Made by a program: the position numbers and the translations under genes. The notes under the pieces were generated by a model that was given only the letters and a program-made list of their open reading frames with translations, was not told where the DNA came from and ran no database searches. From the NCBI GenBank assembly GCA_049840735.1, contig JASGJN010000017.1, positions 352,001 to 416,000 on the forward strand: DNA of 64,000 bases, in the 5' to 3' direction. Of the stretch, positions 5,106-48,246 are shown in pieces. This DNA is from Anaeromyxobacter sp. Its GTDB lineage: Bacteria > Myxococcota > Myxococcia > Myxococcales > Anaeromyxobacteraceae. The stretch's first letter is position 1; each line of letters opens with the position of its first letter.

Positions 5106-6273
5106 GTAACCGCTGCACGGACCCCGGTTAGCGGCGCGGGGCGGCCCACCGCACGCTGGCCGGCATGTCGAGTCGGGAGATCTGGGCGGAGCGGGTGGCA
5201 GAGTGGAGGGCGAGCGGGCTCAGCTCCCCCCGGTTCTGCGAGGGCAAGGGGTTCACGGCGGGCGGCCTGCGGCACTGGTCGCATCGGCTGAGGCACGGCG
5301 GCAAGTCGGCCGGCGCGGATCCGCGTGGCGAAGGTGGTGCGCCTGCCGGCAGTCCCGAGCGCGCCCGCGGCCCCGGACCTGGTGGTCGAGGTCGGCATGG
5401 CGCGCATCGTGGTTCGTCCGGGGTTCGACCGGGCGACCTTCGCCGCCGTGCTCGAGACGCTGGCCGCGCGTGCGGAGGGCACCGCGATGATCCCGCACGG
5501 GCGTGGATGTGTTCGTGGGGCTCGACCCGGATCGACCTGCGGTGGAGCTTCGACCGGCTCGCCGGCATCGGTGACGGAGCGGATCCGGCCGGGAGGCCCC
5601 GGGTGCGCGGCGCGCTCCTTCGTCTTCTTCGGGAAGCGGCGTGACGCGATGAAGGTCGCTCTTTCTGCGATGGGACGGGAGATGTGCACTCTTCTACAAG
5701 CGCCTCGACCGCGGCACACTGCAGGCTGCCGGACGCGCCGGAGGGTGCGACGAGCATCGCCATCGACGAGCGGGCGCTGGGACGACCTGCTCCGACGGGG
5801 ATCGAAGTGCAGGAGAAGTAAAGCGAAGGTCGCGGTGGTCCGCACCCTTTGACAGATCGCGCCGGCGTTTGACTACCAACGTGGTCGCGATGGCGGCGAC
5901 GACGGTGGAGGATCGGATCAAGGAGCTCGAGGCGGCGCTCGCTGCCCGCGATGCCGCCCTGGCCGCCACCGAGGCGGAGCTGGCGAAGGTGACGCAGGAG
6001 CGTGATCTGCTCCGCGCCTCGCACGAGCGGCTGCGGTTCGAGCTGGAGCTGCTGGAAGCGCCGCATCTTCGTGGCCAAGGTTGAGCGGGTGGACCACCGC
6101 GCAGCTCGAGAATGGAGTTCGCCGCGAAGCTGGCCGAGCTGAACCGGCTCGGGGGGTGGCTTGCCGCCGAAGGCAGGCGGCGAGGACGGCGCCGAGCCGA
6201 AGGAGAAGCGCAAGCCAACCGTAGCGCCGGGAACGCCGCGTCTCCAGGTCAGTCCGGAGGCAGAGAAGACGGT
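5106..6273 (+). mobile_element. IS66 left part (tnpA, tnpB, 5' tnpC), degenerate and truncated
   Basis: End GTAACCGCTGCACGGACCCC at 5106. TnpA-like WAERVAEWRASGLS...FC, TnpB-like IDLRWSFDRLAGI, coiled-coil TnpC start at about 5888. Many frameshifts. Confidence 0.8.
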
Positions 6274-21854: not shown

Positions 21855-22481
21855 TCAGAAGCGGAGGCCATCCGCGCCGCCGCGAGCCGGATTCCTCTCG
21901 ATGGCGTCCCCCTCGCCGTCCGGATCCCACACGTCTACAACGTGAGCAAACCTGAGTTCAACAAACCGAACAAACGAAACGACCCCCTCAGACGTCGCGT
22001 AACGAAAACGCGCCAGCACAACCGAATTCCGCAACAGCATCTCTATGCGAGCCGCGACTCGCGTGGACGAGTTGGGCGGCGCCTCGCATGCCGCCTCAAT
22101 CAGTGTCCACCAGAGATTCTGCATTTCAAAGCCCCTTAGGGCCTCTTCAAAGAAGCGACGATACTGCTCCCCCATTTTCGACCAAGCCTCAAATCGAATA
22201 CGATCCCCGAGCCAAAGATGCCACACCTCCCCGCCTTCACGGGTCTCCAAGGCCCCATCATCAACGCACAACACATCCCCAGCAGAAACGGGCGAGAGCG
22301 GCGGCGGCGTAACCGCCCCCCCGCTCACCCAATCTCGGCTCCAAGCAGCGCCGGCAAGCTCACAGAGACGCAAGACGCCCTCAGAGCCACCCCGAAGAAA
22401 TGTCGGCAGCCTCAACTCCGCAACATCCGTCATGAGCACTCTCCACGCCCTAGCTTTCACCTCTAGTCTCATCGTCAGCAA
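21855..22481 (-). CDS. Candidate immunity protein of the giant toxin (may extend toward 21490 through frameshifts)
   Basis: Abuts/overlaps the toxin stop, lower GC. True start uncertain (possibly MTDVAE at 22433). Confidence 0.6.
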   Translation of the reverse strand: MLTMRLEVKARAWRVLMTDVAELRLPTFLRGGSEGVLRLCELAGAAWSRDWVSGGAVTPPPLSPVSAGDVLCVDDGALETREGGEVWHLWLGDRIRFEAWSKMGEQYRRFFEEALRGFEMQNLWWTLIEAACEAPPNSSTRVAARIEMLLRNSVVLARFRYATSEGVVSFVRFVELRFAHVVDVWDPDGEGDAIERNPARGGADGLRF

Positions 22482-28400: not shown

Positions 28401-31400
28401 CGTCGTGGTCGGCCAGGTGCCGTCCGCGATCGGAAGCCCGCTCTTGATGTCGGCCGCGTAGCGGGTGAGCTTCAGCGCTTCGCCGAAGGCGTTCCGCTCG
28501 TAGCCGGTGACGTACCCGGCCGCGTCCACCTCGTAACGGACCCGCCCGGCCTTGTCGTAGGCCTTGAACGCCTTGTTCCCGAGCACGTCGCGGTTGGCGA
28601 CGGCGTTGCCGAACACGTCGTACCAGACCTGCGTAAAGGTCTCGGTCCCGTCGTCGGTGGGCAGGCTGGTCCGGACCTGCCGGCCCATGGAGTCGTACTG
28701 GTAGCTCGTGATCCGCTGGTCGCTGCGGTCGGCCGCCTCGGTCCGGGTGAGCACGTTGCCCAGCCCGTCGTAGGTCATCCGCGTGGCCAGGCGCTCGTTC
28801 TTCTGCTCCACGTTCAGCTGGGCGTCGACGTACGTCAGCTGCACGGCGGGATCGAGCTGCTCCGTGAGCCGCCCGGCCGCGTCGTACGTGTAGTCCCAGA
28901 CGACGTTGTTCTTGTTCGTGTACCGGATCTTGCTGCCGACCGCGTCGTACTCGAACTTCTCGGTCTGGAGCAGCGCATCCCTGGAGAGCACCACGCGCCC
29001 CGAGGCGTCGTACTCGTAGCTGTCGGTCCGGTCGGCAGCCGGCGACTCCACCACCGCGCGCCAGATCTGGACCGCGCCCGCGCCGATGGACAGGCCGGAG
29101 AGGACCGGCGTGGCGTAGGACGTGGTCCGCGTGACCCGGCCGGCGCCGTCGTACTCGGTCCCCTTCACGCCGCCCTGGGCATCCACCGTGTAGCGCTGAC
29201 GGCCCGCGGCGTCGTACGCGACCAACGTGATCCGATCGTTGTTCGCATCCGCTGCCGGCAGTCCGCTGCGCACCCCGAGCGCGCTGATGGTCGGCGCGGT
29301 GTCGGGCGTGATCCTGTTGGCATATGCCGTGGTGCCGATCACGTGGCCCGCGCCGTCGTAGGTCCGCTCGACCACCGCCCCGATCCCGTCGACGCTGAAG
29401 ACCAGCCTGTTGGCGCTGTCATAGACGGCGCGAGTGATCCGGTCGCTGCCAGCGGTCACCACCGGCGTGAACCCGGAGGCCACGCCGGTCCATCCGCTGA
29501 CCACGGACAGCGGATCCTGGGCATAGGCGTAGGCGATGCTCCGGATGACGTTCCCGGCGGCGTCGTACTCCTGCTTGGTGATGCCGCCTGCGGCGTTCAG
29601 CTGGTACACGAGCCGGTTGGCCGTGTCGTAGGCGAAAAGCGTGACGCGGTCATCCGCGGTGAACGAGAGCACCTTGTCCACCGCGTCGGTGGACAGCAGC
29701 GCGGTGGCATAGGCCACCTGCTTGATCACGGCGCCATTCGCGCCGAAGGTCCGGTCGATGACTCCGCCGGCGCCGTCGATGGTGCGGCGCACGCGGCCCG
29801 CGCGGTCGCCCACCTGGCGGGTGGTCACGCCGGCGCGCGTCGTGTTGAGCCAGGTGTCCAGGTCGGTCTTGAGCGCCGCTCCGGTGGCCGTGGGCGAAAG
29901 GCCTTCCGGACGCTCCTTGTAAGCCACGTTCGTGGTCACGCTGCCGACGGTGGCGTTCACGTTAGCGTCGTAGATGAACTTCACCACCGCATTCGTGCCG
30001 TCTACCGTGTAGATCACCCGGTTGAGCGCGTCATAGACGGTACGGACACGCTGGTCGACGTCGGTGCCCTCGGGCCTGGCAAGCGGGTGAAGCGGATCCG
30101 GAGCCCAGGTCGGCTGCTTCTTGGCGTAGGTGCGGCGATCCACGACGTTGCCTGAGCCGTCGTAGGTCAGCTCGGTGATGCCGCCCAGGGCATCGATGGT
30201 GTACTGCAGCTGCCCGTCCGAGTTGTAGAAGCGGCTCTCCACCATGTTGGGCAGGGCCGCGGTACCCGGCTTCAGCCGATTGGTGATCTCGGTCCGCTTC
30301 GCCGCGCCGTCCGTGATCGCATCAAGCCCCTTGGTTTCGATGGGCGTGGCGTAGGTGGTGACCTGGGTGACCCGGCCATCCTTGTCGTAGGCCGTCTGCT
30401 GCACGCCGCCCGCCGGATCGACGGTGAAGGCCAGCCGGTTGGCCTCGTCGTACGCCATCCGCGTGACGTTGCCGTTGCCGTCGGTCCGGCGGACCACGTT
30501 TCCATTCTTGTCGTAGGCGAAGGCCTGGGTGAGCTTGAGCCCGTCCGGATCCACCACCGTCGCGACTCGCCGGCCCAGGGCATCGTACTGGTGCTCGGTG
30601 GTGGTCCCGCCGACGACCGTCACGCGCAGCGTGCGGCCAGCCAGGTCGTAGCTGTAGCGCGTGGTGATGCCGTTCTGGGTGACCTCCGTCACCTGCCCCT
30701 TGGCGTCGTACTTGGTGCTGGTGTTCTCGCCGGGGCCGGTGACGCAGGTGGTCTGCCCCTTGGCGTCGAAGCCGTACGTCGTGACGAGGTTGAGGCCGCC
30801 GGTCCCCGGATCCACGGTGCGGGTGCAGACACGGTTGACGGCGTCATAGCCGTACTCGACCACGTTCCGATTGAGATCATAGGTCCGGAGCAGCCGGCCG
30901 TGATCGTAGGTCCGCTCCTCCACCAGCGTGCCGCCGGCGAAGGACTTGGTCAGGTTGCCGTTGACGTCGTACTGCGACGTCCGCAGCAGCTCCTGCACGC
31001 CCCCCTTGCTGGTCGACACCTCGACGGTCGCGCCGAAGCGGTCGTGGGTGGTCTTGATGGCCACGTTCTCGGGCGTGGTCATGGTCACCGACCGGCCCGC
31101 CGTGTCGTAGGTGTACACGGTGGCCGGGTGGCCGGCCGCGTCGAACTGCTTGAGCACGCGGCTGAACGCGTCGTACTCGGTGACCCGCCTGTTGGTCAGC
31201 GGGTCGATGCTCTCGACCACCCGCCCGAGCTGGTCGTAGGTCTGCTTCCACTCTCCACCGTTCGCATCGACGGTGCGAATCAGTCGGCCGAACGCGTCGT
31301 ACTGCTTGGCGGTCTTGACCGCGAGACCGCCCACGTCGGCGACCGTCGAGGTCTGCTGACCGCGCCGGTCGTAGAAGATCGCGCTCACGACCTCCTTCCC

Positions 31401-34400
31401 GGCGAGATCGAGCTTCTGCACGGTGCGGACGGCCTGCCCGAAGGCGTCGTAGCTGGTGCGGACCCCGCCCCCGTAGGCGTCGATGGCTGCGTTCTGGCTG
31501 CCGCGGGCGTCGTACTGGAAGGTGGTGCGCTGGTTGAGGACCTGCTCGGACGCGTCGCCGCGCGCGCTGTCCAGCTTGGCCAGCGCGTCGCTGGTGAGCA
31601 CCCCGCCCGCCAGCGAGCCGAGATCGCTGGCCAGGATCGCCTTGGCGAAGCGGTTGGTGCTGAGCGCGTGGCCCAGGGCGGCGTAGGTGGTCTCGGCCAC
31701 CTCACCGGCAGCGTCCACCGTGAACCGGAGCCGCCCGGCCTCGTCGTAGAAGAAGACGGTCCGATGGCTGAAGACGTCGGTGGTCGCGACCTTGCGGCCG
31801 GCGGCGTCGTAGGTGTGCCGCACGGCGTACAGGGCCCAGGCAGCGGCCTCGGTCAGCTCACCCGACACGACCTTGGCGGCGCCCTCGGGCAGCAGCTCCG
31901 CGGTCACCCGGCCCAGGGCGTCGTACTGCGTCCGGAGGACCCGCTGGTCGGCCGTGCTCGCGGCCACCGTCTTGCGGACCAGGTTCCAGGCCTGGTCGTA
32001 GTCGTAGGTGGTGGAGGTCCCCTCGACGTTGACCTCGCTGCGCAGGTGACCGAGGCCATCCCAGTCGGCGGTGGAGGTCTGCACCTCCCCGCTGAAGCCG
32101 GTCTTGAGGGTGGCCAGGCTGGTCGTGGCCGTGATGGTCACGTTGGCCGCCACGGCGCTGGCGTAGCGCGTGGTCTGCACCAGCTTGCCGTTCGCGTCGT
32201 AGGCGAGCTCGGTCAGGTAGCGCTTGGGATCGACCTCGGCCACCTTCTGACCGCGCGCGTCGTAGTAGGTGAACGTGACCAGATCGTCCGTAGCGACGGA
32301 CGCAGGGCGAAGGCCAGTCAGATCGCCCGTGGACCGGGCTGTGGCGACCTGGGCGGCGATGCTGGCCGCGTTGATGAAACCGGACACCTTGGTGGCGTAG
32401 GCGGTCGACTGCACCTGGCGTCCGGAGGCGTCGTAGACGAACTCCGTCAGGTAGCCCTCGCCATCGATGGAGGCGCGCAGCAGCCCGTCCCGGTCCAGGA
32501 TGCGGACCGCGGCGCGATCGGTGGCGTCCTGCACCACCTGCACCGCCATGGTGCCGGCGGTCACGGTCTCCACCAGAGCGCCCGAGACCGCAGTGGCGTT
32601 GCTCGAGTCGCCCGCGTACACGGCGGAGAGGCTCTGCGAGCCGGTCGCCAGGGACACCTGGCTCACGGTCAGCGTGGCCACACCGCTCACCAGGCTGGCC
32701 GTTCCGAGCACGGTCGTGCCGCTCAGGAAGGTCACCTTGCCGGTCGGCGAAGTCCCGGTCACGCTCGCGGTCAGCGTGAGCGCCTCGCCCTGGGCAACAG
32801 ACGCCGCCGAGCGGCTGAGCGTCACCGACACCGGGGCAGCCATCACCTTGAGCACGGTGGTGGCCGAGGAGCTGCCCAGGTTGGTCGCATCGCCTCCGTA
32901 CACAGCCTTGAGCGCATGGCCCATCGCCGACAGGTTGCTGACCGTGACCGACGCGACCCCGTTCACCAGGCTCGCGCTCGCGAACGGCGAGTTGCCATCC
33001 CAGAAGAGAATGGTGCCGGTGGCATCCGGGTTCGCGACCTGCGCAGTCAGGACCACCGGCGTTCCGACCGCCACCGAGCCGGCCGGCGAGACCGTGAGCT
33101 TGGTCTCAGGGCCGGCCTTGGTGACGTTGCGCGAGAAGGTGACCGCGCTGGCCGCGTTCTGCCCGTCGCCGGAGTAGGCGGCCGTGAAGGTGCCGGCACC
33201 CGTGGGCAGCGTCACGCCCGTCAGGCTGGCGATCCCGTCCACCACCTGCACCGTCCCAAGCACGGTCGAGCCCAGGAGGAACGTGACCGTGCCGGTGGGC
33301 TTGGTGCCCTGGACCTGGACCTCGAGCGGCCCGCAGCAGGAGACATCGCCCGTTGCCAGCGCAGTGACGCTGCTGGCCGGCCGCTCCATGAAGACGGTGA
33401 CCGCGCCGGACGCCGCCGACGCGTTATCCCGATCGTCAGCCTGGTAGGTGGCCGTGAGCGACAGGCTGCCCGCGCCGAGCTGCGTCGTGGTGAGCGTGGC
33501 CACTCCGTTGACCGTGTCCACCGTGCCGATCGCGTTGCCCCCGGCGTAGAAGGTCACCTTGCCGGTGGGGTTGACGGCGCCGGACACGCGCGCGGTCAGG
33601 GTGACCTGGGCGCCGACCAGCGCGTTCCGCGTCGAGGCGGTCAGCGTGGTCGTGGGGGTGGCGGCCTGCACGGTGACCGTCTTGGCGGCGGCCGCGCTGG
33701 TCTTGTTGGCCGTGTCTCCGGAGTAGACCGCCGTGATGGATTGCGTGCCCTTGGTGAGGGTCGAGACGGTCAGCACCGCCTGGCCGCTGACCAGGTCGGC
33801 GCTGCCGATGGCCACGCCGCCGGTAAAGAAGGTCACGGTGCCGGTGGGGGTGGTCCCGGCCACGGCGGCCGTCAGGGTCACGGGGTTGCCGGCCTGGACC
33901 GAGGTCGCGCTGACGGTCAGCGTGGTGGTGCTGGCCGGCAGGACCGCGTTGACCGTGACGGACACCTCGGCCGAGGTGCTCGAGGCGTTGACGGTGTTGC
34001 CCGCGTACTTGGCAGTCAGCTTGAACGTGCCCGCCGCGAGCGAGCTGGTGGTGAGCGTCGCCACGCCACCCGAGATGGTACCGGTCCCGATGGAGGCACC
34101 ATCCCGGTAGAACGTGACCGTTCCGGAGGGCTCGAACCCCGTCACCTGCGCGACCAGGGTCACGGAGGCCCCCTGGTCCAGCTTCAGCTTCGAGGCGCCC
34201 ACCTGCACGCGGGTCGGCGTCTTGAGTCCGGTGTCAAGCGCACCCGTGCTGCCAGCGCTGAGCTTGTCGCCCGAGTAGACCGCCAGGAGGTTGCCAAGGC
34301 CGGTGTTGGTGACGGCCAGCTCGGCCTTGCCGTTGATCACCTCGGCGGTGCCGATGAGCTGCATGTTGTCGAAGAAGCTGACCGTGCCGGTGACCACCCG

Positions 34401-37400
34401 GTCGGCATCGACCACGGTCAGCAGCGCGCCGGGAATCACCATGGCCGTCAGCTTCGAGGGGGCCCCCTCGACCCCGCCCGCCGTCAGCGTCACCTCGGTA
34501 CGAGTGACCCCAAGCGTAGGACCGGCCCCGGGAGCGGTGCCGCCGCTCACCGTTATGGTGGAGGTGGTCGAGAAGCTCCCGACGTTGCCCAGGTCACCGG
34601 CGTAGCTGGCCCGGACCGTGATCGGCCCGGTGTTCCCGAACTTGACCGCCAGGGTGGCGACCCCGTTCACGACCGCCGCCGTCCCCAGGACCGTGCTGCC
34701 GGTGAGGAAGGTCACCGTCCCCTGGGGCAACTTCCCCGCCACGCGCGCTGTGAGCGTCACGCTGGCGCCCATGGACGCCGTGGCCGGCGCGGTGAGGGTG
34801 GTGGCCGAGATCACCGGCAGGTCGGACTTGCTGGCCGCGTTGCCGGTGTCCCCCAGGTACTCCGCCCAGAGGCTGCTCGTGCCAGCGTCGGTGGTGAAGC
34901 CGTCCGCACCCACCACCGCGCTGGCCGATGGCGTGAGCGAGCCGACGGTCAGCGTGGCCACGCCGCCGTTCAGCGTACCCGTGCCAATCTGGGTGCTCCC
35001 GTTCCAGAAGCGGACCGTCCCGCTGGGCGCGAGGATCCCCGCTCCCGTCACCCGGGCGGTGAGCCGCAGGGGGAGCGCCGCCGTGCTGGTGGTCGCAGCG
35101 GAGGTGAGCACCAGGCTGGTCGGCGCGGGCTTCACCGTGCCCTCGAGCTTGCCGATCGAGGCCGCGTCCTCGGCGCTCCCGCCGTAGACCGCCGTGATGG
35201 TCCCATCGCTCGCGGTCAGCTCCGTGGCAAGCGTGGCCTTGCCGTAGGACAGCGCGGCAGTCCCGATCACCCGCGTGCCGGACAGGAACGTGACGGTCCC
35301 GACCGGCTCGAAATTCTCCCGTCCGCTCACCGTCGCGGTGAGCAGCACGTTCGCGCCGACCACCATTCCCGCTGGAGGCGTGGAGCTCGTCACCACCAGC
35401 GACGTAGCGTGCGGCGCCACGGTGGTCACCTGGGTGACCTCACAGGCCTTGTTCTTCGTGTCGCCGGCGTAGGACGCCTTGAGGGTGACCGCTCCGGCCG
35501 GCAAGGCGGAGGTGACCAGGGTCGCCTGGCCGTTCACGACCGATGCGGTCCCGAGCGAGATGGCCCCAGCGTAGAACGTGACCACACCGCTCGCGTTCAC
35601 CCCGGCGACCGAAGCCGTGAGGGTTGCCTCCTCGCTGAACACCAGACTGGAGATCGTCAGGCTGGCGGTGGTCGTGACCTGCTGCACGGTGACCGACGCG
35701 GTTCCCGCGCTCGAGGTCGTGCTGGTGTCGCCGGAGAAGACAGCGCGCAGCGAGGCGGCTCCCACCGGAAGTGACTTCACCACCAGGGCGGCGGTGGAGC
35801 CGCTCAGCGTGACACTTCCAAGGAGGGTCGAGCCGTTGAAGAAGCTAACGGTCCCCGTGGGCGATCCACCGGTCACCGTGGCGGTGAGTGTCACCGGGGT
35901 CCCGAAGGCCGGCGTGCTGCTGGACACGGACAGGCCGGTCGTGGTGGTGGTGCGCGCCGCCGAGACCGTCACGGCCGCGACGGTGGAGGTGGAGGGCCCG
36001 TTGTTCGAGTCGCCCCCGTAGGTCGCCTTGATCGAGTGGCTGCCCGCCGCCAGGGAGGCGGTGGTGAAGGTGGCCAGCCCGTTGACGATGGTGCCGGTCC
36101 CGAGGGCCGTCGCTCCGTCGTAGAAGGTCACCGTCCCGCCGGGCGTTGCGCCAGTGACCTGGGCCACGAAGGTGGCCGAGCCCGCCGGGATGGTCGCGCC
36201 CGGAATGAAGAGCGTCGTCGCGGTCGCAGCTGTCGTCACGGTCTCCGTGACGGCGGCTGAGGTGCTGTATGCCGCCGAGGCGTCGCCGGAGTAGACCGCC
36301 GTGATGGCGTTGGCTCCCACCGGCAGGTCCGAAAGCGTGAGCGAGGCCTTGTTGCCGGTCCCGACAGTTGCGCTGCCGAGCAGCGTGGTGCCCTTGAAGA
36401 AGGAGACCGTCCCAGTCCGGGTCGTGCCCGATCCGCCCGAGACCGTACCGGTGAGCACGACCGCTGTCCCGCGGGCGGTGGTCGCGCTGGAGAACGTCAG
36501 GACGGTGGTGCTGGCGGCAAGCGAGGAGGTCGGCCAGCTGGTGTTTCCCGGGCCGGGTGAGGTGGCAGAGGCCGCGCTGGAGACGCTGGTGGCGTTGTTC
36601 GCGTCACCTGCGTAGACCGCCGTGTAGGAGACGGCGGTGCCGACGGGGGGGTACACCACCAGCGAGGCGCGCCCACCGCTCACCGTTGCGGTACCGAGCG
36701 CACGCAACCCGGCAAAGAAGGTCACCAGGCCGGTCGGGGAGCTGCCGGTGATGGTTGCCGTGAGCGTGACGTTGTTGGTGTAGGGTCCTCCCGCAACCGC
36801 CGTGAGAGCCGTCGTGGTGGTCCGCGAGATGGTGGGCGTGACGATGTTGGAGGTCGCCTGGGCGTTGTTGGTGTCGCCCAGGTACTTGGCGGTGATTCGC
36901 GGAGCCCCCACCGCGAGCGACGTGACCGTCAGGGCCGCCACCCCGTCCACCACGTCCACTTGCGCGAGCTCGGTGGCGCCCGAGTAGAACGCCACCTTGC
37001 CCGTGGCCAGCGTCGCGCCCGTGGCCTGCGCCAGCTTGGCCGTGAAGGTGATGGCCGAGCCCTGCGCCGCCGCCGTGGCCGAAGACGATAGCGTGACCGT
37101 CACCGGCGCGGTGGTCACCGTCCTGTTGAGCGCCGTGCTGGTGGCGCTCGTGGCGCAGTTGGTGCTGCCGGTGTAGGTGGCCGACAGGGCGTTGCTGCCG
37201 CCAGGCAGGCTCGAGACGGTCAGCGTGGCCAGGCCGTTGCTGATGGTCGCCCGGCCCAGCACCGTGGTGCCGGTGAAGAAGGTCACGGTGCCGGTCGGCA
37301 CCACACCGTTCGTGCCCACCACGGTTGCCGTCAGCGTCACCGAGTTGCCGTGGATGATGCTGGCTGGGGCGCTGAGGGTGGTGGTGGTCGGCGCCGTGGC

Positions 37401-40400
37401 CACCGTCTCCGCCACCACGGCCGACGTGCTGGTGGCGTTCCGGGTGTCGCCGACATAGGTCGCCTTGAGGCTGGCGGTGCCCACCGTGAGGTTGGTCACG
37501 CTGAGCGTGGCCACGCCGCCGGTCAGCGTCGCCGTCCCCAGCAGCGTGCCGCCGCTGTAGAACGAGACCGTGCCGGCCGGGTTGTTTACGCCGCTCACGG
37601 TCGCGGTCAGGGTCCGGGCGGCACCGAGGCCGTCGGCGGCGCGGGTCACGGCCAGAACGGTGGTGCTGGTGGCGGGAGAGACCGTGGTCGAGGCGGCGGC
37701 CGAGATCGCGCCGGTGTTGACGCTGTCACCGGAGTAAACCGCCGTGAGGCTAGCGGTCCCGGAGGCAAGGTCATCGGTGATGAAGGTGGCCACGCCGCCC
37801 GTCACCGCCGCGCTGCCAAGCAGCGTGCTGTCGCGGAAGAAGCTGACCGTGCCGCTGGCCGTGCTGGAGCTGATGGTCGCCGTGAGGGTCACCGGCGCGC
37901 CCGCCACCACCGAGCCGGAGGAGACCGCCAGCGTGGCCGTCACCGCCGTCAGCTGGGTCACGTCGATCAGCGCCGAGGTGCTGGCCTGGTTCGACCCGTC
38001 ACCCTGGTAGACGGCCTTGACGGTCGACACGCCGGCAGGGAGACCGCTGGCCACGTAGCTGGCCACACCGTTCACCACCGCCACCGTCGCCAGCTCCACC
38101 GAGCCCCGGAAGAACTTGACCGTGCTCCCGGGGTTCGCCCCGGCCACGATGGCCGTGAGCGTCACGCTCCCGCCTGGCGCGATCCGGGCCGTCGAGACGC
38201 GCAGCTCGGTGGTGGTGTTGGGGGCCGCGTCTACCGTGGCCGCCACCACTGCCGAGGCGCTCCCGGCGTAGGCGCTGTCGCCGCCGTAGACGGCGGTGAG
38301 CTGCTGGCTGCCCACCGGCAGGCTGGTCACGGTCAGCGTGGCCACGCCGTTCACGACCTCGGCCGCGCCCACGCAGGTCTGGCCGGCGAAGAAGCTGATG
38401 GTCCCGGTCGCGCCCAGGTTCGGAAGCCCATCGGCCCCCAGCACGGTGGCCGTCAGCAGGCGGGTTGCGTACTGCCCGGTGCTGCCGGAGACCATCTCGA
38501 GCCGCGTGGACGTCGCCGTCCCGGCCAGCGTCAGCGTGACCCCGATGCCGTTGCCGAGCTTGGACGTATCGACCGGGGTGGCAAGCTTCGTGACCGAGAG
38601 CACCCGGGAGGCGCCATCGTACTGCGTCTGCGTCACGTACCCCAGGCCATCCACCTGCCAGGCCAGGCGACCGGCCGCGTCGTAGAAGCTCCAGGACTTG
38701 ACGTCCTGGGCGCCCGCCGCCACATCCGGGAGCGCCATGATGCTCTCGGGCGAGAGCCGCGCGATGGCGTCCCACGCCGTCCCGATGGCGGACGGCATGG
38801 TCGAGATCTCATACGTGCTGTCCGCGACGTTGGCGTACTGGAAGTAGCCACCGGCCGTCCGGAGCTGCTCAACCTCGCCCAGGTATTTGAGCCAGTTCGC
38901 CTTGTCCCCGAGTTTGTAGAACGCGACCGCTGCCCCGAGCGTGCCCTCCGACCACACGGTGCTTGCGGCCCCCGGATACTCGTCCTGAGCCGAGTAGGGC
39001 ATGAAGCCCTCGACCCCGTTGACGGTCGTTCCATAGACCGCGACCGCACGCTGGAGGGAGCTCCTGGCCTCGGCCATCCGGCCAGTGGCAGCGAGGAAGT
39101 AGGCCCCCCACGTCAGGCAGTCCAGCGCGCTTCCCGTGTCCACGGTGCTGGCGTCGGCGAGCCCCTGGTAGAAGTAGCCGCCCGCCACATTGAAGTGCGA
39201 CCGCATCAGGTTCTTGTCGATGCCTTCTGCCGCCCGCGCGTAGCGGTCGTCCTTGAACACCTCATAGGCCCACCGGAGCGCGAAGAACGCGTCGATGTTG
39301 TGCTCGGTGGACGCCCAGGGGAGCACGTAGCCGGCGTCCAGCTCGCCGTTCACGTACCGCCCTCGGCCGGCCGTGATGCTACCGGCCTGGATCCCGGTCG
39401 TCGCCTGCTGGGTCAGCAGGTAGTCCGCCGCCTTCTGCGCCGCGACACGCACGGCCTCAGGCGCAGCCGAGCCGCGGAGCGCCAGATACCGGGTCAGGGA
39501 ATAGAGACACCAGGCGACGGAGCCGTTCCGGACGTAGGCGTCCCCCTCCCCGGACAGCATGTTCACCGAGAACGGGAACGAGCCGTCGGCGAGCTGCGTC
39601 CCCACCAGCCCCATCACGGCACGGTCCAGCGCCGCGCCCTCCTTTGCTTCCACGAGGGCGCAGATGTAGACCGCCTGATCGTAGGTGTAGGTCCGGTTAC
39701 GGAGGCTCCCGTAGGCAGGATCCGTCGTGGCGACCTCGTAGGAGCGGATCCTCCCCGTGTTCTCGGAGTAGATGGCCTTCGTCGCGCCCGTGGACGTATC
39801 GATGAGCCGGACGAGCTTGACTCCGGCGTGCAGCGGAACCGTGAAGTCGACACGGCCATCGGCCGCGATCGCCAGCTCCTGCTGGACGTACTCGATGTCT
39901 GCCACCAGGACGTACTGGAGCTTCAGGTTCTGATAGTAGCCGCCTGAGACCTGGTACTTGGACGGGAGTCCGGAAACCTGGACGCTGGGCACCGCATTCT
40001 GGCCGTCGTTGAGGACGGTCAGGATCTCGCCTTCGTTCAGGTAGTTTTCGGAGAGCGCCGGCAGGTAGTTGGACCGCGCTGCCAGCGCCGCGAGATCGGC
40101 CTGCACCTTGGCGGCCTCGACGCCGTCGAGCGCCGGCCGTTCGGGGGCGGCGCTCGGGCGGAGGGCGTCCAGCGTGACGGCAGAAGCCGAGGCGCCTGGA
40201 TTCCCGTTGAACGCGATGGTCGGATTGCCCGACGAGTCGACCAGCCGGGCCGTGTCGACCGGGTTTGCGTACCGGATCTGCTGGGTGACCCGGTTGCTGG
40301 CGTCATGGATGTACTCGGTGAGCCCGCCGGCGGGGTCGATGTCCGCCACCTTGCGACCGGCCGCATCGTAGAGGACCCATGACCGCTGACCGGTGGGGTC

Positions 40401-42273
40401 CTGCGTCATCACCAGCCGATCGTCCCGGTCGTAGAAGTAGCGCGTGGTCCCTAGCTCGGTCCCTGCGTTGGACTGGACCACGCTCACCAGCCGGCCAGCG
40501 GCGTCATACGTGGACAGCGTGACGAGGCCATTCGCCAGGGTCGTCGTGGTGCGGTTCGCGGCGTCGTCGTAGAGCGTGGCGCTCTGGTTCGCGACCCCGA
40601 ACTCGCTCGACAGCTCCAGCTTGCCGATCAGCCGGCCGAAGCCGTCGTACCAGCAGTCCACCTCGGCCTTGGTGTCGGCCGAGACCGTCTTCACCAGCCG
40701 GCCGCGCTCGTCGTACACGAAGACCGTGGTCGCGCCCGAACCCACGCCCACGCCGGCTGCGTCCACGGCGGTGTAGCTGGTCTGCGCGCTGAGCTGGCCG
40801 CGCAGATCGAAGGCGTAGTCGGTCCGGACCGTCTGGGTCCGATCCGCTGCGGCCGTCCACGCGACCAGGTCGCTCTCGGCCGCGCTGCCGCTGTAGGTCC
40901 CCGCGCGATACTCGATGGAAGCGACGCGCTGCCCGTTCGCGTCGTAGCGCTGCTCGGTCACCCTCCCCTCCGCCGAGATGACGAAGCGGAGCTGGTTCTT
41001 CCCGAGCGCGTCGTAGACGTAGCGGGTGGTGAGCGGGTCCGTGCTGCTGGCGCCCGAGTAGATGGTCTCGGACAGCAGCTGGTTCTGGGCGTCGTAGGTG
41101 CGGACCAGGCGGTTCCCGGCGCTGTCCACCTGCTCGGTCAGGTTGCCCTTCACGAACGTGGTGGTGACCGTCCGGCCCATGCCGTCGGTGGCAGTCTGGA
41201 CGTCCTGGGTGGCGTCGTAGCTGTAGTCGACCCGCGTCTTGCCAGCGGCAGACTGGATCGACTTGAAGTTCCCGGCCGCGTCGTAGTCGCAGACCGTGAC
41301 CAGTCCCAGCGCGTCGGTGACCGCCGTCCGCTTCGCCGCCGTGTCGTAGGCGAAGGTGGTGACCTGGTCGAGCGCGTCGGTCACCTTGCTGACGCGGTAG
41401 CTGCCGTCGACCAGCGTGTACTCGAAGGAGAGCGAGGTCCCGTCGGACTGCGTGATCTTCGCGACCCGCGTGCTGGTCCCGTCGTAGGTGTAGGTCGTGG
41501 TGTAGGTGGACTGCGCCAGCCCCGCCGCCACCTGCGCGTCGTTCTTCGGGTTGAGCTTGACGCTCACCGTGCTCAGCCGGTTCTGCGCGTCGTAGGTGTA
41601 GCTGACGTCCACCACCGTCAGCGCCCCACCGATTCGACAGGACGGTGCTCACGCTGGTGAGCGTGCTTCCCGAGTAGGTGTAGGTGATGGACTCGCCGCT
41701 CGAGCTGAGGATCTCGGTGAGCAGCCCGTTCGTGTAGTTGAACGCGAGCGTGTTCCCGGCCGTGTCGACGGCCGAACGGATCCGCCCGAAGGTCCCGGCG
41801 TCGTAGTTCTCGCGCGCGCCCGTCGCGCCGTCGGTCCACGTGTAGGTGCCGTCGCCGTTGAGGACGATGACGTCCTGCGCCGAACCGTAGGTCGCCAGCG
41901 CCACGTAGCGATTGGGGTCGCCGGTGCCGACGTTGGAGTAGTCGACGAACGAGCCGTCGTAGTCGTACCGGCGCAGCGTCCCGCCGCCCAGGTCCTGGAT
42001 GGCCCGCGTCTGCGTGCCCTGCCAGTTGTCGCCGTTGCCGTCGAAGTCGTAGCCGCCCTGGCTGTTGTAGGTGCGGATGGTCGAGCCATCCGGCCCGCGG
42101 CCCGCCAGGACCGAGTCCACGTCCTGCAGCACCAGGTTGCCGGTCGCGATGTTGACGTACGCCCGCTCGCCGCTGCGGCCCTGGGTCGCCGAGCCGAGCA
42201 CCCCGCGACCGCCGAGGTTGGTGAGCGAGCTGAGGTTCAGGCCCAGCGAGTTCCCACTGAAGATCGCGACCAT
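22450..42273 (-). CDS. Giant YD/RHS-repeat polymorphic toxin-adhesin (about 6,607 aa): YD shell + glycosidase-like insert + 21 Big_3 Ig domains + LysM + hydrophobic segment + PD-(D/E)xK tip
   Basis: Three ORFs joined by single-base shifts at about 41633 and 26157; total 19,824 bp = 6,608 codons. Dozens of YDxxGR repeats; LysM 24592-24739; KPDITN...MEIKP at about 23165-23220. Confidence 0.9.
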
Positions 42274-42353
42274 GGTGTGCAGACCCCGTCGTCATGCCGC
42301 GATTTGCCCCCCGGAGCACCTGCCCCTCTGGCCGATCGCAGCTGGCGGATGGG

Positions 42354-42380
42354 TTATCCGCAGCCGCGCGCAGATGTTTA
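42354..42380 (-). promoter_or_regulatory. Sigma28 (FliA/WhiG)-type promoter of the giant toxin gene
   Basis: TAAA-N15-GCGGATAA versus consensus TAAA-N15-GCCGATAA, 80 bp upstream of the ATG. Confidence 0.7.
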
Positions 42381-42548
42381 GGGCGGCCTGGCAGAAATCT
42401 TGACGACGAGGGGAAACCCGAGGCCCGGGAGCGCTCGGCGCCGGAGAAGCGCCCGTTCGAGGCGTTCTGTCGCAGCGCGCTGCGACCGTTGCGACCCTCA
42501 CAGCGCGCGTGCCACCCTGCCCCTCCTCACCAGCGGGGGCGGCGCAGC

Positions 42549-45419
42549 ATGATCGAGCGGGTCATCCACCAGATTTGGCATCCCTTCACCTCGAAGGAGA
42601 TGCCGCGCGACTGGCAGCGCTTCTCGCGCAGCTGGAAGCGGCAACACCCTGCGTACGAGCACCGGATTCGGGGCATCGACGAGAGCCGTCGCTTCGTGGC
42701 GACGCACTTCCCGGACTTCCTGCCCACCTACGACGGCTACGACGACCCCATCAAGCGCGTGGACACGCTGCGCGTGCTGCTGCTCGCGCACTTCGGCGGC
42801 CTCTACGTCGACCTGGACGTCGAGTGCCTGCGCCCTGTGGACCCGCTGCTCGCCGGCCAGCGGCTGGTCATCCCGGCAGAGCCGCCGGTGCACGCGGAGG
42901 GCTGGCGGAAGCGCGGCTACGATCACCGCCACGTGCTCTCCACCGCCTTCATGGCCTCGCAGGCTCGCCACCCCTTCTGGCGCGCGGTGATCGAGGAGTT
43001 CAAGCGCTCCACGCACCTGCCCGGCGTGATGGACAGCACCGGCCCGTTCGTCATCACCCGCTGCTACGAGCGCGACCCGGATCGCACCGCCATCGCGCTG
43101 GCGCCGCCCGACACCATCTACCCGGTGCACGGCGGCGAGTGCCAGACCGGCGCGGCCTACGACGTCGAGTACTGGGTGAAGCAGACCGCCCACTCCTACG
43201 CGGTCCACCACTGGGCCAGCACCTGGAACCGCCCCGGCGCCAAGGACCTGCCGGCGCTCCGTCCATACCTCGAGGGCCTGCCGGTCAAGTACCGCCACCC
43301 CAGGCTGCACGCGCAGCGCCCCGGCCAGCTCCTGCAGAAGGGGCCACTGGTGAGCTGCATCATGGTGAGCCGCGGCCGGGCCATGCCAGCGCGCTGGGCC
43401 ATCCAGTGCTTCCTCAACCAGACCTACGAGGACCGCGAGCTCCTCATCGTCACCACCCACGGCGAGGGCGACCTGCCTTCGCACATCCGCGAGCTGAACG
43501 ACCCGCGCATCCGCGTGGTGGGCGTCCTGCCGCCGGGCACGCCGGTGGGCACGCAGCGCAACGTGGCGCTGGATCACGCCAAGGGCGACTTCGTCTGCAC
43601 CTGGGACGACGACGATCTCTCCGGCGCGGACCGGCTGGCGGCCGGCGTCACCGCGCTCGCAACAGGCGCGGCCGCGGCGGCCTTCCTGGAGCGGATCCAC
43701 CTCTGGTGGCCGGGCCGCAAGCACCTGGCGGTGTCTGCGCGGCGCCACTGGGAGAAGACGGTCATCGCCCGCAAGGCGGTGATGGGCCGCTTCGACGACG
43801 TGGATCAGGCCGAGGACGCTGGCCTGATGGCGCGGCTCCTGGAGGAGCACCCGATCGTCGCGGTGGACGATCCCAACCTGTACACCTACGTGGCCTGGGG
43901 CGGGAACACCTCCACGCCGGAGCAGCTGGAGCGGCTCTTCGGCCAGGCCACCTTCCACGCCCGCGGCGCCGAACACGACCTCGCCGTGTCGGTGCTGGAC
44001 AAGCACGTTCCGGCGCTCGAGTACCTGGACTGGCTGGCGCGGCGGGATCCCAAGAGCTTCGAGCCGCCGCCCGATGCGGCGCCGCCGGCCCCTGCAGGCG
44101 AGCCGAGCCGGTCCCGGCTGGTCCCGGGCCCAGCCCGCCTCGGCCAGTCCCGCCCAGCGGGCAGCCCTTCCCTGCGCATCCTCTTCGCCTGGGAGCTGGG
44201 CGGTGGCCTGGGCCACACCGTGCCGCTCTCCCAGATCGCCCGGCCGCTTCTCGAGGCCGGCCACGAAGTCCACATGGCGCTGCTGGATTTCAGCTCCACC
44301 CGCGCTGCCCTGGGCAAGCTGGCCGGCCACCCCCGGCTGCACCTCTGGCAGGCGCCGTGCTGGCCGGCCAAGCTGAGCGGCCTGCCCGATCCGGCCTGCC
44401 ACGCCGAGCTCCTGTTCCACGCCGGCTTCCTCGACGCCCGGCGCATCGCCGGGCTGGCCGACGGCTGGGACAGCCTTTTCCGGCTGCTGCAGCCGGACCT
44501 GCTGGTGGCCGACAACGCGCCCACGGCGATGCTCGCCGCGCGCGGCCACGCCTTCAAGACCGCCATGGTGGGCACCGGCTTCTTCCTGCCCATGGACGGC
44601 GCGCCCATGCCCAGCTTCCGCGAGTGGGAGCCGGTGGCCCGGGAGCGGCTGGAGCAGGCCGAGGCGCGCGCGCTGGAGACCTGCAACACGCTGCTCCGGG
44701 CGCGCAGCCTGGCGCCGTTCCGGCAGCTGAGCGAGCTCTACCAGGTGGACGAGCGGTTCCTGATCACCGTCCCCGAGCTGGACCACTTCGAGGCCCGGGG
44801 GCGCGAGCCCTCGCAGAGCTACTACGGCATCCTGCCCGCGGCGACGCAGGGCCAGGCGGCCGAGTGGCCGCGGGGCACGGCCCCGGCCGTCTTCGCCTAC
44901 CTCAAGGCGGAGTACGAGCCGGTCCGCAAGGTGATCGCCGCGTTGCAGGCCAGCCCCTTCCGCGTGCTGGCCTACGTGGCCGGCATGTCGGCGCAGGCCG
45001 CAGCCGAGCTTTGCTCGGACCGGACCCGCATCGTGACCGACCCGGTGGACATGTCCGAGGTGGCCCGGACCGCCGATGCCATCCTCTGCCAGTCCGGCTC
45101 GTCCACGGTCGCCACGGGGCTGCTCGCCGGCAAGCCGCTGGTGATGCTGCCCATGCACGTGGAGCAGGCGCTGGTGGCCCGCCGCGTCCGGTCGATGGGC
45201 GCGGGGCTCTACGTGCTGGAGGACGCCATCGACCGGGTCGGCCCGGCGCTGCAGCGCGTGGTGACCGACCCGGCCTTCGGCGAGGCGGCCCGGGCCTTTG
45301 CCCGGCGCCATGCCAGCCCGCAGGGGAACCACGTGGCAGAGGCGGTCGCGGCCCGCTGCGAGGAGCTGGCCTCCGAGACCCGTAGCTCGCGCGCCGCGCG
45401 CCCGCCCTCCGCCGCATGA
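42549..45419 (+). CDS. Tri-domain glycosyltransferase (GT32-like + GT2-like + GT-B)
   Basis: IHQIW...GGLYVDLDVECLRP; PLVSCIM...WDDDD; ILFAWELGGGLGH...GKPLVMLPMHVEQ. Confidence 0.85.
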   Translation: MIERVIHQIWHPFTSKEMPRDWQRFSRSWKRQHPAYEHRIRGIDESRRFVATHFPDFLPTYDGYDDPIKRVDTLRVLLLAHFGGLYVDLDVECLRPVDPLLAGQRLVIPAEPPVHAEGWRKRGYDHRHVLSTAFMASQARHPFWRAVIEEFKRSTHLPGVMDSTGPFVITRCYERDPDRTAIALAPPDTIYPVHGGECQTGAAYDVEYWVKQTAHSYAVHHWASTWNRPGAKDLPALRPYLEGLPVKYRHPRLHAQRPGQLLQKGPLVSCIMVSRGRAMPARWAIQCFLNQTYEDRELLIVTTHGEGDLPSHIRELNDPRIRVVGVLPPGTPVGTQRNVALDHAKGDFVCTWDDDDLSGADRLAAGVTALATGAAAAAFLERIHLWWPGRKHLAVSARRHWEKTVIARKAVMGRFDDVDQAEDAGLMARLLEEHPIVAVDDPNLYTYVAWGGNTSTPEQLERLFGQATFHARGAEHDLAVSVLDKHVPALEYLDWLARRDPKSFEPPPDAAPPAPAGEPSRSRLVPGPARLGQSRPAGSPSLRILFAWELGGGLGHTVPLSQIARPLLEAGHEVHMALLDFSSTRAALGKLAGHPRLHLWQAPCWPAKLSGLPDPACHAELLFHAGFLDARRIAGLADGWDSLFRLLQPDLLVADNAPTAMLAARGHAFKTAMVGTGFFLPMDGAPMPSFREWEPVARERLEQAEARALETCNTLLRARSLAPFRQLSELYQVDERFLITVPELDHFEARGREPSQSYYGILPAATQGQAAEWPRGTAPAVFAYLKAEYEPVRKVIAALQASPFRVLAYVAGMSAQAAAELCSDRTRIVTDPVDMSEVARTADAILCQSGSSTVATGLLAGKPLVMLPMHVEQALVARRVRSMGAGLYVLEDAIDRVGPALQRVVTDPAFGEAARAFARRHASPQGNHVAEAVAARCEELASETRSSRAARPPSAA

Positions 45420-45997
45420 CCGACGAGCGCTACCACTTCACCTCGGACTGGTTCACCCGCGTCATCCCCGCCTGGCGGGCGCTCTTCAGCCTCATGAGCT
45501 GGAGCGCCCATGAGCCGCGTCTGGCGGTGGAGATCGGCTCGCACGAGGGGCGCTCAGCGCTCTGGACGCTGGAGCATGTCCCGGGGATGCAGCACCCCGA
45601 CAGCCGCATCCACTGCATCGACATCTGGGACCAGCCGGTCGCCCTGGCAAACTTCCAGGCCAACGTGGCCCGCTTCCACCGGCCCGAGCAGATCGTCATG
45701 CACCAGGGGCCGTCGTCCGAGGCGCTGGTCCGGCTTCCGGCGGGCTGCGCTGACATGGTGTACGTGGACGGGGACCACACCGCGCCGGGCGTCCTGTCCG
45801 ATCTGGTCCTGGGGTTCCGGGTGCTCAAGCTGGGCGGGGTGATGATCTGCGACGACTACCTGTGGAGCCGCAGCACGGACATCCTGGAGTCGCCGAAGCT
45901 GGCCATCGACATGTTCACCAACATCTACCGGGCGAAGATCGCTCTGGTTTCTGACCTGCCGCTCTACCAGATCATGTTCCTCAAGATGGGTCACTAG
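45416..45997 (+). CDS. Class I SAM-dependent methyltransferase (Methyltransf_24-like)
   Basis: VEIGSHEGRS, DMVYVDGDH, GGVMICDDY. ATGA overlap with the glycosyltransferase gene. Confidence 0.85.
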   Translation: MTDERYHFTSDWFTRVIPAWRALFSLMSWSAHEPRLAVEIGSHEGRSALWTLEHVPGMQHPDSRIHCIDIWDQPVALANFQANVARFHRPEQIVMHQGPSSEALVRLPAGCADMVYVDGDHTAPGVLSDLVLGFRVLKLGGVMICDDYLWSRSTDILESPKLAIDMFTNIYRAKIALVSDLPLYQIMFLKMGH

Positions 45998-46041
45998 GAA
46001 CCCGTCGCGGCCGGCCCGGAGGCGATTCTGCGCCTGGTCGC

Positions 46042-46068
46042 TAAACTGTGGCCGCGGCCGGAGGATAA
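46042..46068 (+). promoter_or_regulatory. Second sigma28-type promoter
   Basis: TAAA-N15-GAGGATAA; shares CTAAAC...GGATAAC with the toxin promoter. Confidence 0.6.
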
Positions 46069-46201
46069 CTCTCCATCACCCCCGAACATCCCTGTCTGAT
46101 GGTCCCCGGTGCCCGGCACCGGTGGCGCGATCCTTCCATCGCCTGACCGCGCCGCCCGTGCCGAACGGGCGGATCTGGGCCAGGGCGGACTGGAGCCGGA
46201 C

Positions 46202-47242
46202 GTGCTGGAATACAAGAACGACCTCCTGGAGCACCTCCGCTGGCTGCGCGAGGCGGTCCTCGGCGCAAGCGCCGAGCTGATCGTGGCGGGCCACTCGGTC
46301 CAGGCGCTGATCCGCCGCGAGCCGGCGGTCCTGGCGCTGGAGCCGCTGTTCAAGGGCAACGTCGACGGGCAGACGCTCTTCACGCCGCAGCTCCACCCGC
46401 AGGCGGATCGGTTCATGGGCTGGCTGCCCTACCCGCCCCGCCGCTGGGACGCGGCCGCCGACCGGCTGGCCTTCAAGGCGCACGCGCAGAAGGTGGGGCT
46501 GCGCGTGCCGGGGACCTTCACCGAGGCCAAGGGAGCGCCGGCGGACGTGGTGGTGAAGCGCCCCCAGCCCTCGGCCGACCACCCGCCCCGGGGCCCCTAC
46601 CGCTCCGCCTTCGAGCAGCCGCTCTCCGAGGCCGACGGTGAGTACTACGAGCCGCTGGTGATCGGCGACCGGCTCAAGGTCTGGTTCTGGTGCGGGCAGG
46701 CGGTCTGCGCCGAGTTGGACCGGCTCCCCTCGGTCCTGGGCGACGGCGCGTCGTCGCTGCGCGACCTGGTCATCCACCGCGCCAGCTTCACCGGCCCGCG
46801 CACCGACCGCGAAGCGCAGCTGCTGCTCGCCCGGGTCGAGACCGTGCTCCAGTTCTTCCGCACCACCCCGAGCGCCGTGCTCCCCGCCGGCCAGCGGCAG
46901 ATCGTCGACCTGCACCACGGCTCCGAGCTGGCCCACCCCTCCGACCGGCAGCACATCGACTTCCTCTCCGCGCCGGACGAGGGCTGGTTCGCCGAGATCC
47001 GCAAGGCGGGCCCGCTGCTGCTCGAAGCGCTCCCGGAGGCGCAGCGCGGCGACGCGCTCTTCACCGCCGACATCGTCCTCGACGAGGAGGGCCGCCCCTG
47101 GTTCCTGGGGATGAACAGCGTCTTCGCCGTGCACCCGCTGGTCTACCGGGCCATGATCCCCGCGCTGCTGGAGCGACGGGGAGCTTCCCTGCCTGAGCCG
47201 CTGCCCGAGCAGGCGCCCGCGACCACGGCGGACGCCAGCTGA
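46202..47242 (+). CDS. ATP-grasp-like hypothetical protein
   Basis: AFKAHAQKVGLRVP, VVVKR, VLGDGASSLRDL and TADIVLDEEGRPWFLGMNS. GTG start after GGAG. Confidence 0.6.
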   Translation: MLEYKNDLLEHLRWLREAVLGASAELIVAGHSVQALIRREPAVLALEPLFKGNVDGQTLFTPQLHPQADRFMGWLPYPPRRWDAAADRLAFKAHAQKVGLRVPGTFTEAKGAPADVVVKRPQPSADHPPRGPYRSAFEQPLSEADGEYYEPLVIGDRLKVWFWCGQAVCAELDRLPSVLGDGASSLRDLVIHRASFTGPRTDREAQLLLARVETVLQFFRTTPSAVLPAGQRQIVDLHHGSELAHPSDRQHIDFLSAPDEGWFAEIRKAGPLLLEALPEAQRGDALFTADIVLDEEGRPWFLGMNSVFAVHPLVYRAMIPALLERRGASLPEPLPEQAPATTADAS

Positions 47243-47280: not shown

Positions 47281-47850
47281 GTGAACGAGACGAACACCGA
47301 CTATTTCCCCGCGCTCATGCAGCGCATCCAGGCCGGCGCGCCGGCCCAGCAGCTCCTGGCGCAGGCGGCGGACGAGTATCCCCGCGACCCGCGGCCGCTG
47401 CTGCTGCTCGCCGCCGAGTTCATGCACGAGGGGCAGGTGGACCGCGCCGAGGCGGCCTACGTCTTCGCCCTGCACCGGGCGCCGGACTTCGCCATCGCCC
47501 GCTTCCAGCTCGGACTGCTCCAGTGGACCAGCGGCCGGCCCGCCGCGGCAATCGCCACCTGGGCGCCGCTCGACGCGCTCGACCCGGCGGAGCCGCTGCG
47601 CCTCTTCAAGCAGGGGCTCACGGCGCTCGCCCAGGACCAGTTCGAGGACGCGCGCCGGTGGATCCTCGAGGGCATCGCGCACAACAGCGTGAACCTGCCG
47701 CTCAATCGCGACATGCAGATGGTGCTCGACCGCATGGCCTCCGCCGGCCTGGGCGCCGGGGCGCCTCCTGCGCAGCCCCCTGCGGCCGCGCCGCCGGCCG
47801 AGGGCGGCCAGGAGCACGTGCTCATCTCCGGCTACCGCTCCGGACGCTGA
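47281..47850 (+). CDS. TPR-repeat protein
   Basis: LLLAAEF...AEAAY..AL..AP...IARFQLGLL helical repeats; AGGAGG RBS. Confidence 0.75.
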   Translation: MNETNTDYFPALMQRIQAGAPAQQLLAQAADEYPRDPRPLLLLAAEFMHEGQVDRAEAAYVFALHRAPDFAIARFQLGLLQWTSGRPAAAIATWAPLDALDPAEPLRLFKQGLTALAQDQFEDARRWILEGIAHNSVNLPLNRDMQMVLDRMASAGLGAGAPPAQPPAAAPPAEGGQEHVLISGYRSGR

Positions 47851-47862: not shown

Positions 47863-48246
47863 ATGAGCCCCATCGATCCCACCAGTCCCCTGCTGGCGCA
47901 GATCCGCGCCCAGGCCGTCGCCTGGGCGCGGCAGGCCCAGGGCAAGGAGCGGCCCGGACAGCAGGCCGGGGCCAGGCGCGGGACGCCCCGGGCACCGGGA
48001 GACTGGCTGGGGCACGTCGCCACCTCGGTGGCGGCGATCGACCGCGAGGACCCGAACCGCCAGCGCAAGGCCTTCCGCTGCTACCTGCAGGCGCTGCTGG
48101 CCCGCGAGTGCGGCATCGAGGACGACGGGGCGCCCGACTTCCAGCAGCTGGTGGACCGGGTGCTGGAGACCATGGAAGGGGAGCCGCAGCTCCAGGCTGC
48201 CATCCAGAAGGCCGGCGAGGCGCTGCTGAGGACGGCGAGCCCCTGA
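47863..48246 (+). CDS. Small helical hypothetical protein
   Basis: 127-aa ORF, host-like codon usage, 12 bp after the TPR gene. Confidence 0.7.
   Translation: MSPIDPTSPLLAQIRAQAVAWARQAQGKERPGQQAGARRGTPRAPGDWLGHVATSVAAIDREDPNRQRKAFRCYLQALLARECGIEDDGAPDFQQLVDRVLETMEGEPQLQAAIQKAGEALLRTASP

Follow-up and report, generated by a model that had tools for sequence, protein, structure and literature searches.

Two promoter-like boxes in a stretch of 64,000 nucleotides (nt) from an Anaeromyxobacter sp. (hereafter the window; C17:352001-416000, where C17, C13 and C19 are contigs of this genome, G000) stand upstream of a giant YD/Rhs gene and of a small helper operon. With a probability of about 0.68, these boxes are promoters of a dedicated sigma28 that drives the YD/Rhs genes and their helpers, the toxins being exported by a filament-less flagellar-type machine. 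The sigma28 paralogue in question is encoded in a second, flagellin-less flagellar cluster and very probably reads the motif. The elements concerned are as follows.

42353..42381 (-): promoter-like site A, CTAAAC-N16-GGATAAC, 108 nt 5' of the start of the giant YD gene (42273)
46041..46069 (+): promoter-like site B, CTAAAC-N16-GGATAAC, 5' of the ATP-grasp/TPR/127-aa operon
22450..42273 (-): giant YD/Rhs gene, in three open pieces, with breaks near 41.6 kb and 26.2 kb

Two boxes of fixed geometry and their conservation

An earlier note, made from the sequence alone, had described both boxes as sigma28-type promoters, and CTAAAC-N16-GGATAAC was indeed recovered where it had placed them, at 42381-42353 (-) and 46041-46069 (+). 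Site A is located in the gap between the YD gene and a divergent glycosyltransferase gene, whose likely start at 42549 corresponds to the same start residue in the homologue of a sister genome. Site B lies between the stop of a methyltransferase gene (45997) and an ATP-grasp-like open reading frame (ORF) that starts at 46109, or at 46202 in the Atlas record. The pattern TAAA-N15-GNGGATAA has 2 matches in the window, with any match at all in 0 of 100 shuffles, and 3 exact matches in the whole 6.67-Mb genome. The canonical sigma28 promoter, TAAA-N15-GCCGATAA, has 0 matches across the same 6.67 Mb. When one mismatch is allowed, CTAAAC-N16-GGATAAC is found at 8 genome sites, every one with spacer 16, while the same boxes at spacer 15 or 17, at the same tolerance, are absent genome-wide.

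Six of these eight sites precede the six paralogous giant YD/Rhs genes of the genome, one each, the remaining two being site B and an orphan divergent copy at C19:104189. The upstream regions of the paralogues are related by descent, hence their six sites are not independent, as site B and the sites of other genomes are. The orphan is a strong copy on the minus strand, divergent from a YD promoter and antisense into an unrelated gene, and is probably the remnant of a divergent helper operon. The promoter region of the C17:348669 paralogue also has a degenerate second copy, at C17:350286 (-), with no gene start behind it.

Conservation was followed in 80 loci, the best 80 of 188 GTDB relatives of the YD gene; 2 of the 80 were left out of the first motif scan, and 1 of later ones, for want of 400 nt of upstream DNA. 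TAAAC-N17-GA is present within 300 nt upstream of 62/79 orthologues, compared with 0/80 windows within genes, 3/225 far-upstream windows and 1-3/79 at other spacers, in agreement with the check for the motif upstream of orthologues that the earlier note had proposed. This pattern was picked after a first look at the same loci, which makes held-out loci the independent test. From 10 further loci, 1 lacking upstream DNA and 2 already in the training set were removed, and all of the remaining 7 score 16.9-24.9 at spacer 16, against at most 4.5 within genes. The motif is oriented toward the gene, 30-200 nt upstream, and a divergent second copy on the opposite strand, often facing TPR, 127-aa or ATP-grasp genes, accompanies it in 18/79 loci. 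Among plasmid-borne relatives the box was seen by eye in all eight inspected and by regular expression in 4.

A matrix trained solely on other organisms returns site B as its top match in this genome, and its best six matches are all at YD or accessory loci; below approximately 16 bits, matches are at the level of shuffled sequence. In the same genus, the pattern occurs in 4/4 genomes with the YD gene and in 1/33 without it, that one at an AT-rich contig end. The sister genome G036, which lacks flagellin, has five exact sites, all inside the island, upstream of three methyltransferase genes, of the YD gene and of the pair of TPR and 127-aa genes.

With regard to form, the spacer matches the canonical sigma28 geometry, TAAA-N15-GCCGATAA, and is fixed, while the -35 TAAAG and the extended -10 GC of the canonical promoter are lacking. 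The final base of the -35 box is C in 61/62 sites and the -10 half is degenerate after GA. The G of GNGGATAA, put forward earlier as a diagnostic deviation, does not serve as one, being found in only 15/66 orthologous sites. What sets the motif apart is the -35 TAAAC (not TAAAG) together with the lack of a fixed extended -10 GC.

A divergent sigma28 in a filament-less flagellar cluster

The second flagellar-type cluster occupies C17:312782-335201, which is 17-39 kb upstream of the window, and adjoins another YD paralogue. Its genes are ordered fliQ, fliR, flhB, flhA, flgF, flgG, flgA, flgH, flgI, flgB, flgC, fliE, fliF and a G-like gene, followed by fliH, fliI, fliJ, a K-like gene, flgD, flgE, fliM, fliN, fliO, fliP, the sigma gene and a TPR gene, the names FlhB and FliO resting on sequence and on annotated relatives. 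Like a motility flagellum it has the export gate, MS ring, rod, L/P rings and hook; flagellin, mot, flgK/L, fliD and FlgM are missing from its ORFs. The flagellin and the sole FlgM of the genome lie in the motility cluster, which is complete, with FliA, and whose flhA is split. The second cluster is not of injectisome type, its FlhA scoring 776 bits with the FlhA model versus 576 with SctV and its FlgH/FlgI, rod and hook genes being present. The same gene order is found in Burkholderia, Ralstonia and Undibacterium records. No motif site occurs inside the cluster, for which reason it is likely transcribed early from another promoter.

The protein at the FliK position, between fliJ and flgD, has no Pfam match; a FliK/SctP ruler would be expected to have a C-terminal substrate-switch domain behind a long low-complexity stretch. 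Its predicted C-domain structure has the switch domain of PscP as its best match by probability and TM (probability 0.89, TM 0.54, rmsd 1.4, E 1.2), which would fit a retained early-to-late export switch. A third gene of SctV/FlhA type was noticed at C13:678000-693500, where type III-like genes are interleaved, judged by eye, with type VI effector-like ones (VgrG-like, PAAR-like and pentapeptide repeats).

The genome does encode a divergent sigma28, as the idea of a dedicated paralogue demanded, and it lies in this cluster, outside the window. It shares 27% identity with the host FliA and scores 92.7 bits with TIGR02479 (FliA/WhiG; cut-off 189.6), compared with 208.8 for the host protein. Its nearest solved relatives among PDB sequences are WhiG-type sigmas and FliA (105-140 bits), with other sigmas at 68 or less, and its orthologues are well separated, scoring at least 228 bits against at most 125 for FliA. 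Pfam region 3 (Sigma70_r3), present in the host FliA, is absent. In P. aeruginosa FliA, arginine R97 is reported to read the extended -10 GC (PMC12784957). The equivalent position in the paralogues is Q in 62, E in 34 and R in 5 of 108 proteins, 12 of 120 having been missed by the regular expression; in region 4.2, S224 is mostly G and Q228 is kept. At the level of sequence, the protein and DNA changes agree, R97 being replaced where the extended -10 GC is not conserved and the -35 ends in C.

The sigma gene, the motif and the YD gene also travel together. In a draw of 151 genomes, chosen for neither gene apart from the centre genome G070, the sigma and the YD gene are both held by the same 7. 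Of the 69 genomes with a YD gene, motif and sigma are both present in 57 and both absent from 6; 3 have the motif only (all metagenome-assembled genomes, MAGs) and 3 the sigma only (with weak sites), a table on which kinship among the genomes inflates any test. The cluster persists without a sigma gene after fliP and without a motif at threshold in four genomes of three distant groups (G001, Holophaga; G002 and G120, Noviherbaspirillum; G005, Steroidobacteraceae), a weak site in G120 scoring 9.4. The Holophaga cluster (G001:C1:3400884-3424000) is worth a separate remark: its FlhA is 76% identical to that of this genome, across phyla, and it lacks the sigma, the motif and the 127-aa gene, which suggests a recent transfer plus a change of control. 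In sixteen genomes positive for both motif and sigma, flagellin has no match. The claim that both units share a regulon under a dedicated sigma28 paralogue is supported by motif conservation, co-occurrence and co-loss, and the paralogue part of it holds because the R97-type arginine is lost, the sites have no conserved GC, and the genes co-occur and are lost together.

Giant presumed cargo, putative helper proteins and competing explanations

The YD gene of the window encodes DUF6531, RHS repeats, approximately 21 Big_3 Ig-like domains, further RHS repeats, LysM and a C-terminal REase-like domain. The latter is PD-(D/E)xK-like, with invariant PDI and E-x-KP, and its relatives sit on Rhs C-termini, in keeping with the label of toxin that the gene had been given; a match to Tox-REase-9 is weak (E 5e-4 to 1e-2, in 3/14 relatives). 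The combination of RHS repeats with a variable C-terminal toxin domain is that of an Rhs polymorphic toxin. The two breaks in the gene are probably assembly errors, given that 2/15 matched ordinary genes are also broken, that the motility flhA is split and that the ORFs of relatives are intact, running unbroken for 4,600-6,200 aa. A programmed or otherwise special origin of the breaks was considered and is not needed, as ordinary genes of the assembly show similar ones.

Three side observations concern these genes. A second RHS + LysM fragment at window positions 2167-5118 (-), among genes resembling those of insertion sequences, resembles the final part of the main YD gene and is possibly an orphan C-terminal module. 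An insert like a helical-barrel enzyme, recognised by eye and with no Pfam match, lies among the YD repeats at about 38800-39800 (-), in ORF 25884-41615. An ankyrin-like ORF (by eye) at C17:335680-336430 (-) follows a YD paralogue with a weak C-terminal Lipase_3 match (E 0.012), a possible toxin-immunity pair. The neighbouring features of the window are listed below.

46109..47242 (+): ATP-grasp-like protein, first gene 3' of site B
47281..47850 (+): small TPR protein, with TPR Pfam matches
47863..48246 (+): 127-aa helical protein of no known family, which tracks the sigma paralogue; candidate anti-sigma
42549..45419 (+): multi-domain glycosyltransferase (Pfam PF04488, PF00535, PF06722), divergent from the YD gene
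45416..45997 (+): S-adenosylmethionine-dependent methyltransferase (PF13578)
21855..22481 (-): candidate immunity ORF of 208 aa, by position alone, overlapping the toxin stop; no Pfam match

The ATP-grasp-like protein has no Pfam or NCBIfam match; its Atlas feature and structure neighbours are RimK/ATP-grasp proteins (TM approximately 0.63 between predicted models), and the predicted fold agrees with the name given to it earlier. It is encoded in 8/80 orthologous loci and the small TPR protein, which appears chaperone-like, in 24/80. The glycosyltransferase has the same layout in the sister genome G020, is present in 2/80 orthologous loci and possibly modifies cargo or hook.

The 127-aa protein was assigned to no family by Pfam, PDB-sequence, Foldseek or Atlas searches. 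Its gene was found in 64/77 genomes; none of the four sigma-less clusters has it, and its copy number equals that of the sigma gene in G071, G098 and G108 (2/2) and in G124 (3/3). FlgM is encoded by a sigma-driven gene that tracks its sigma, and the resemblance led to the proposal that the 127-aa protein is an exported anti-sigma in FlgM's role. Co-loss and copy number speak for this role, which is conceivable rather than likely; alternatively, the protein may be a chaperone or co-activator.

The following order of events is envisaged. The cluster, transcribed early from its other promoter, would build a hook-basal-body, after which the ruler would switch export and the candidate 127-aa anti-sigma would be removed once the hook is complete. 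The freed private sigma would then transcribe the YD genes and helpers, including the 127-aa gene behind site B, whose product would feed back on the sigma, while TPR chaperones would bring the YD protein, still unfolded, to the gate. The view of the YD protein as a late substrate of type III secretion system kind, already raised in the earlier note, is plausible with the filament-less cluster as candidate machine. On balance the YD proteins are more likely than not to be substrates of the cluster's export gate, helped by TPR chaperones and the FliK/SctP-like switch.

The main rival accepts the sigma regulon and proposes that YD proteins leave the cell otherwise, through type I secretion, lysis or vesicles, with the hook-basal-body exporting smaller cargo or anchoring the YD protein. 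Proteins of 4,600-6,700 aa are far above the usual size of type III cargo, and the many Ig domains are folded. In the C13 paralogue (C13:537649-555686) the Ig domains are replaced by many calcium-binding RTX repeats, and such repeats are usually a feature of type I secretion. Kribbella (G004) has two YD genes (L099, L116) with the same N-terminus and lacks the sigma, the motif and any FlhA match; these genes may reflect real transfer or contamination. The Lysobacter substrates reported so far, in the accessible part of that work, are proteins of 15-40 kDa; only bands of 15-40 kDa were cut in the analysis described there, so giant cargo could not have appeared. Set against such a route are the exact co-occurrence of YD gene and cluster sigma in the 151-genome draw, the tight synteny of YD genes and cluster in Burkholderia, Ralstonia, Variovorax and Caulobacter loci, and the sigma-less clusters that still adjoin YD genes. 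In addition, 0/80 YD N-termini have K or R in residues 2-6, and a Sec-type n-region is thus absent. Export by another route is accordingly held to be unlikely, albeit a serious competitor.

Other findings weigh against a dedicated sigma28 with its own checkpoint and export machine as well. The motif occurs without the sigma in three MAGs (G087, G095, G114) and in G024; three of these four lack a cluster-type FlhA and one has part of it, hence missing contigs are the likely cause. Three sigma-positive genomes score below the motif threshold, and in Pleionea a highly divergent sigma gene follows fliP and a 127-aa gene is present, with no matched motif. Copy numbers of the sigma and the 127-aa gene differ in G076 and G091, two sigma-positive MAGs (G083, G115) have no 127-aa match, and FlgM (PF04316) is matched by 0/23 members of the 127-aa family, with no FlgM-like fold match. 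The PscP match of the FliK-position protein is not significant by its E-value. Finally, the orthologue matrix was trained on the orthologous sites themselves, and related genomes are not independent.

A second alternative is that the ordinary motility FliA reads the boxes and thereby ties the toxin genes to the making of flagella. In its favour, a complete motility cluster that includes FliA and FlgM is present, the geometry of the motif equals that of canonical TAAAG-N16-CGATAA, and 3/79 orthologous sites also fit TAAA-N15-GCCGAT. However, the upstream regions of this genome's own flagellin and flgM genes do not match the motif, 2/3 of them showing TTAAG-N15-G[CA]CGAA instead, and complete same-genus genomes with FliA and without the YD gene have 0 sites. 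All five motif-bearing genomes that were tested have neither a FliA over the cut-off nor flagellin, and where the paralogue is gone the motif is gone too, although FliA-like genes remain. Host FliA was rejected as reader of the boxes on account of its own targets and of the FliA-less genomes, and is now highly improbable in that role. It is just as improbable that the motif is the binding site of another regulator or an RNA element, as the degeneracy of the -10 half after GA might suggest, given two gene-oriented boxes at a fixed 16-nt spacer of sigma28 geometry, the opposite-strand copies, the loss of the motif together with the sigma gene and the lack of a further regulator gene among the cluster's ORFs.

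Relation to known systems and significance

The nearest regulatory parallel is the FliA/sigma28-FlgM regulon of E. coli and P. aeruginosa (PMC12784957). Shared with it are a group 3 sigma-70 relative in a flagellar cluster, the TAAA.-N16-.GATAA geometry, the retained glutamine of region 4.2 and probably exported late products. Unlike the FliA promoter, the present one has -35 CTAAAC, not TCTAAAG, and no conserved extended -10 GC; its paralogue has R97 replaced, has no Pfam region 3 and falls below the FliA cut-off. The cluster contains no FlgM, and the targets are Rhs-type toxin genes and helpers rather than flagellin.

As to the machine, the flagellin-less FT3SS (a type III secretion system of flagellar kind) of Lysobacter enzymogenes OH11 exports FlgD and non-flagellar proteins (PMC7688988; PMC9927559). 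It likewise has rod, ring, hook and export genes without flagellin, a likeness drawn from its description, and an L. enzymogenes protein (P0097) is an orthologue of the present sigma. In the accessible parts of those reports the OH11 system is treated as a motility leftover, with no sigma, promoter or YD cargo described, whereas the cluster studied here stands beside a complete motility system in the same genome and has a scattered distribution among phyla. The flhA3 system of Xylophilus (bioRxiv 10.64898/2026.02.05.703958), compared by gene list only, has FlgABCDEFGHI, FlhAB and FliAEFHIJMNOPQR without flagellin, hypothetical genes at the G and K positions and a patchy distribution; the portion of the preprint available proposes no function, promoter or cargo. 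Rhs/YD polymorphic toxins resemble the present genes in their RHS repeats, DUF6531, variable C-terminal domain (REase-like here) and small downstream ORF. The proteins described here differ in being giant, with Ig or RTX inserts and LysM, and in their link with a flagellar export cluster rather than with type VI or Tc systems. The flagellin-less cluster type was therefore known before. A literature search that did not reach most subscription papers turned up nothing on the promoter, the regulon, YD proteins as cargo or the 127-aa gene.

Taken further, the system would be a distinct mobile secretion system in which the hook-basal-body acts as a needle for Rhs toxins of at least 0.5 MDa, with its own sigma28 of rewired promoter specificity, its own non-FlgM anti-sigma checkpoint and a spread over Beta-, Alpha- and Gammaproteobacteria, Acidobacteria and the genus of this genome, a broader proposal that is tentative and falls a little short of even odds. 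Until now, flagellin-less flagellar clusters were either interpreted as motility genes in decay or assigned no function. With a conserved private promoter, the regulon of such a cluster can be named directly, and it points to giant polymorphic toxins as its cargo. If true, the hook-basal-body would here serve specifically for toxin secretion, as a present-day counterpart to how injectisomes arose, and would bear on how type III export handles proteins of at least 5,000 aa, while a non-FlgM anti-sigma would couple transcription to hook completion. In addition, the family provides a sigma28 and a promoter that form a natural pair of altered specificity.

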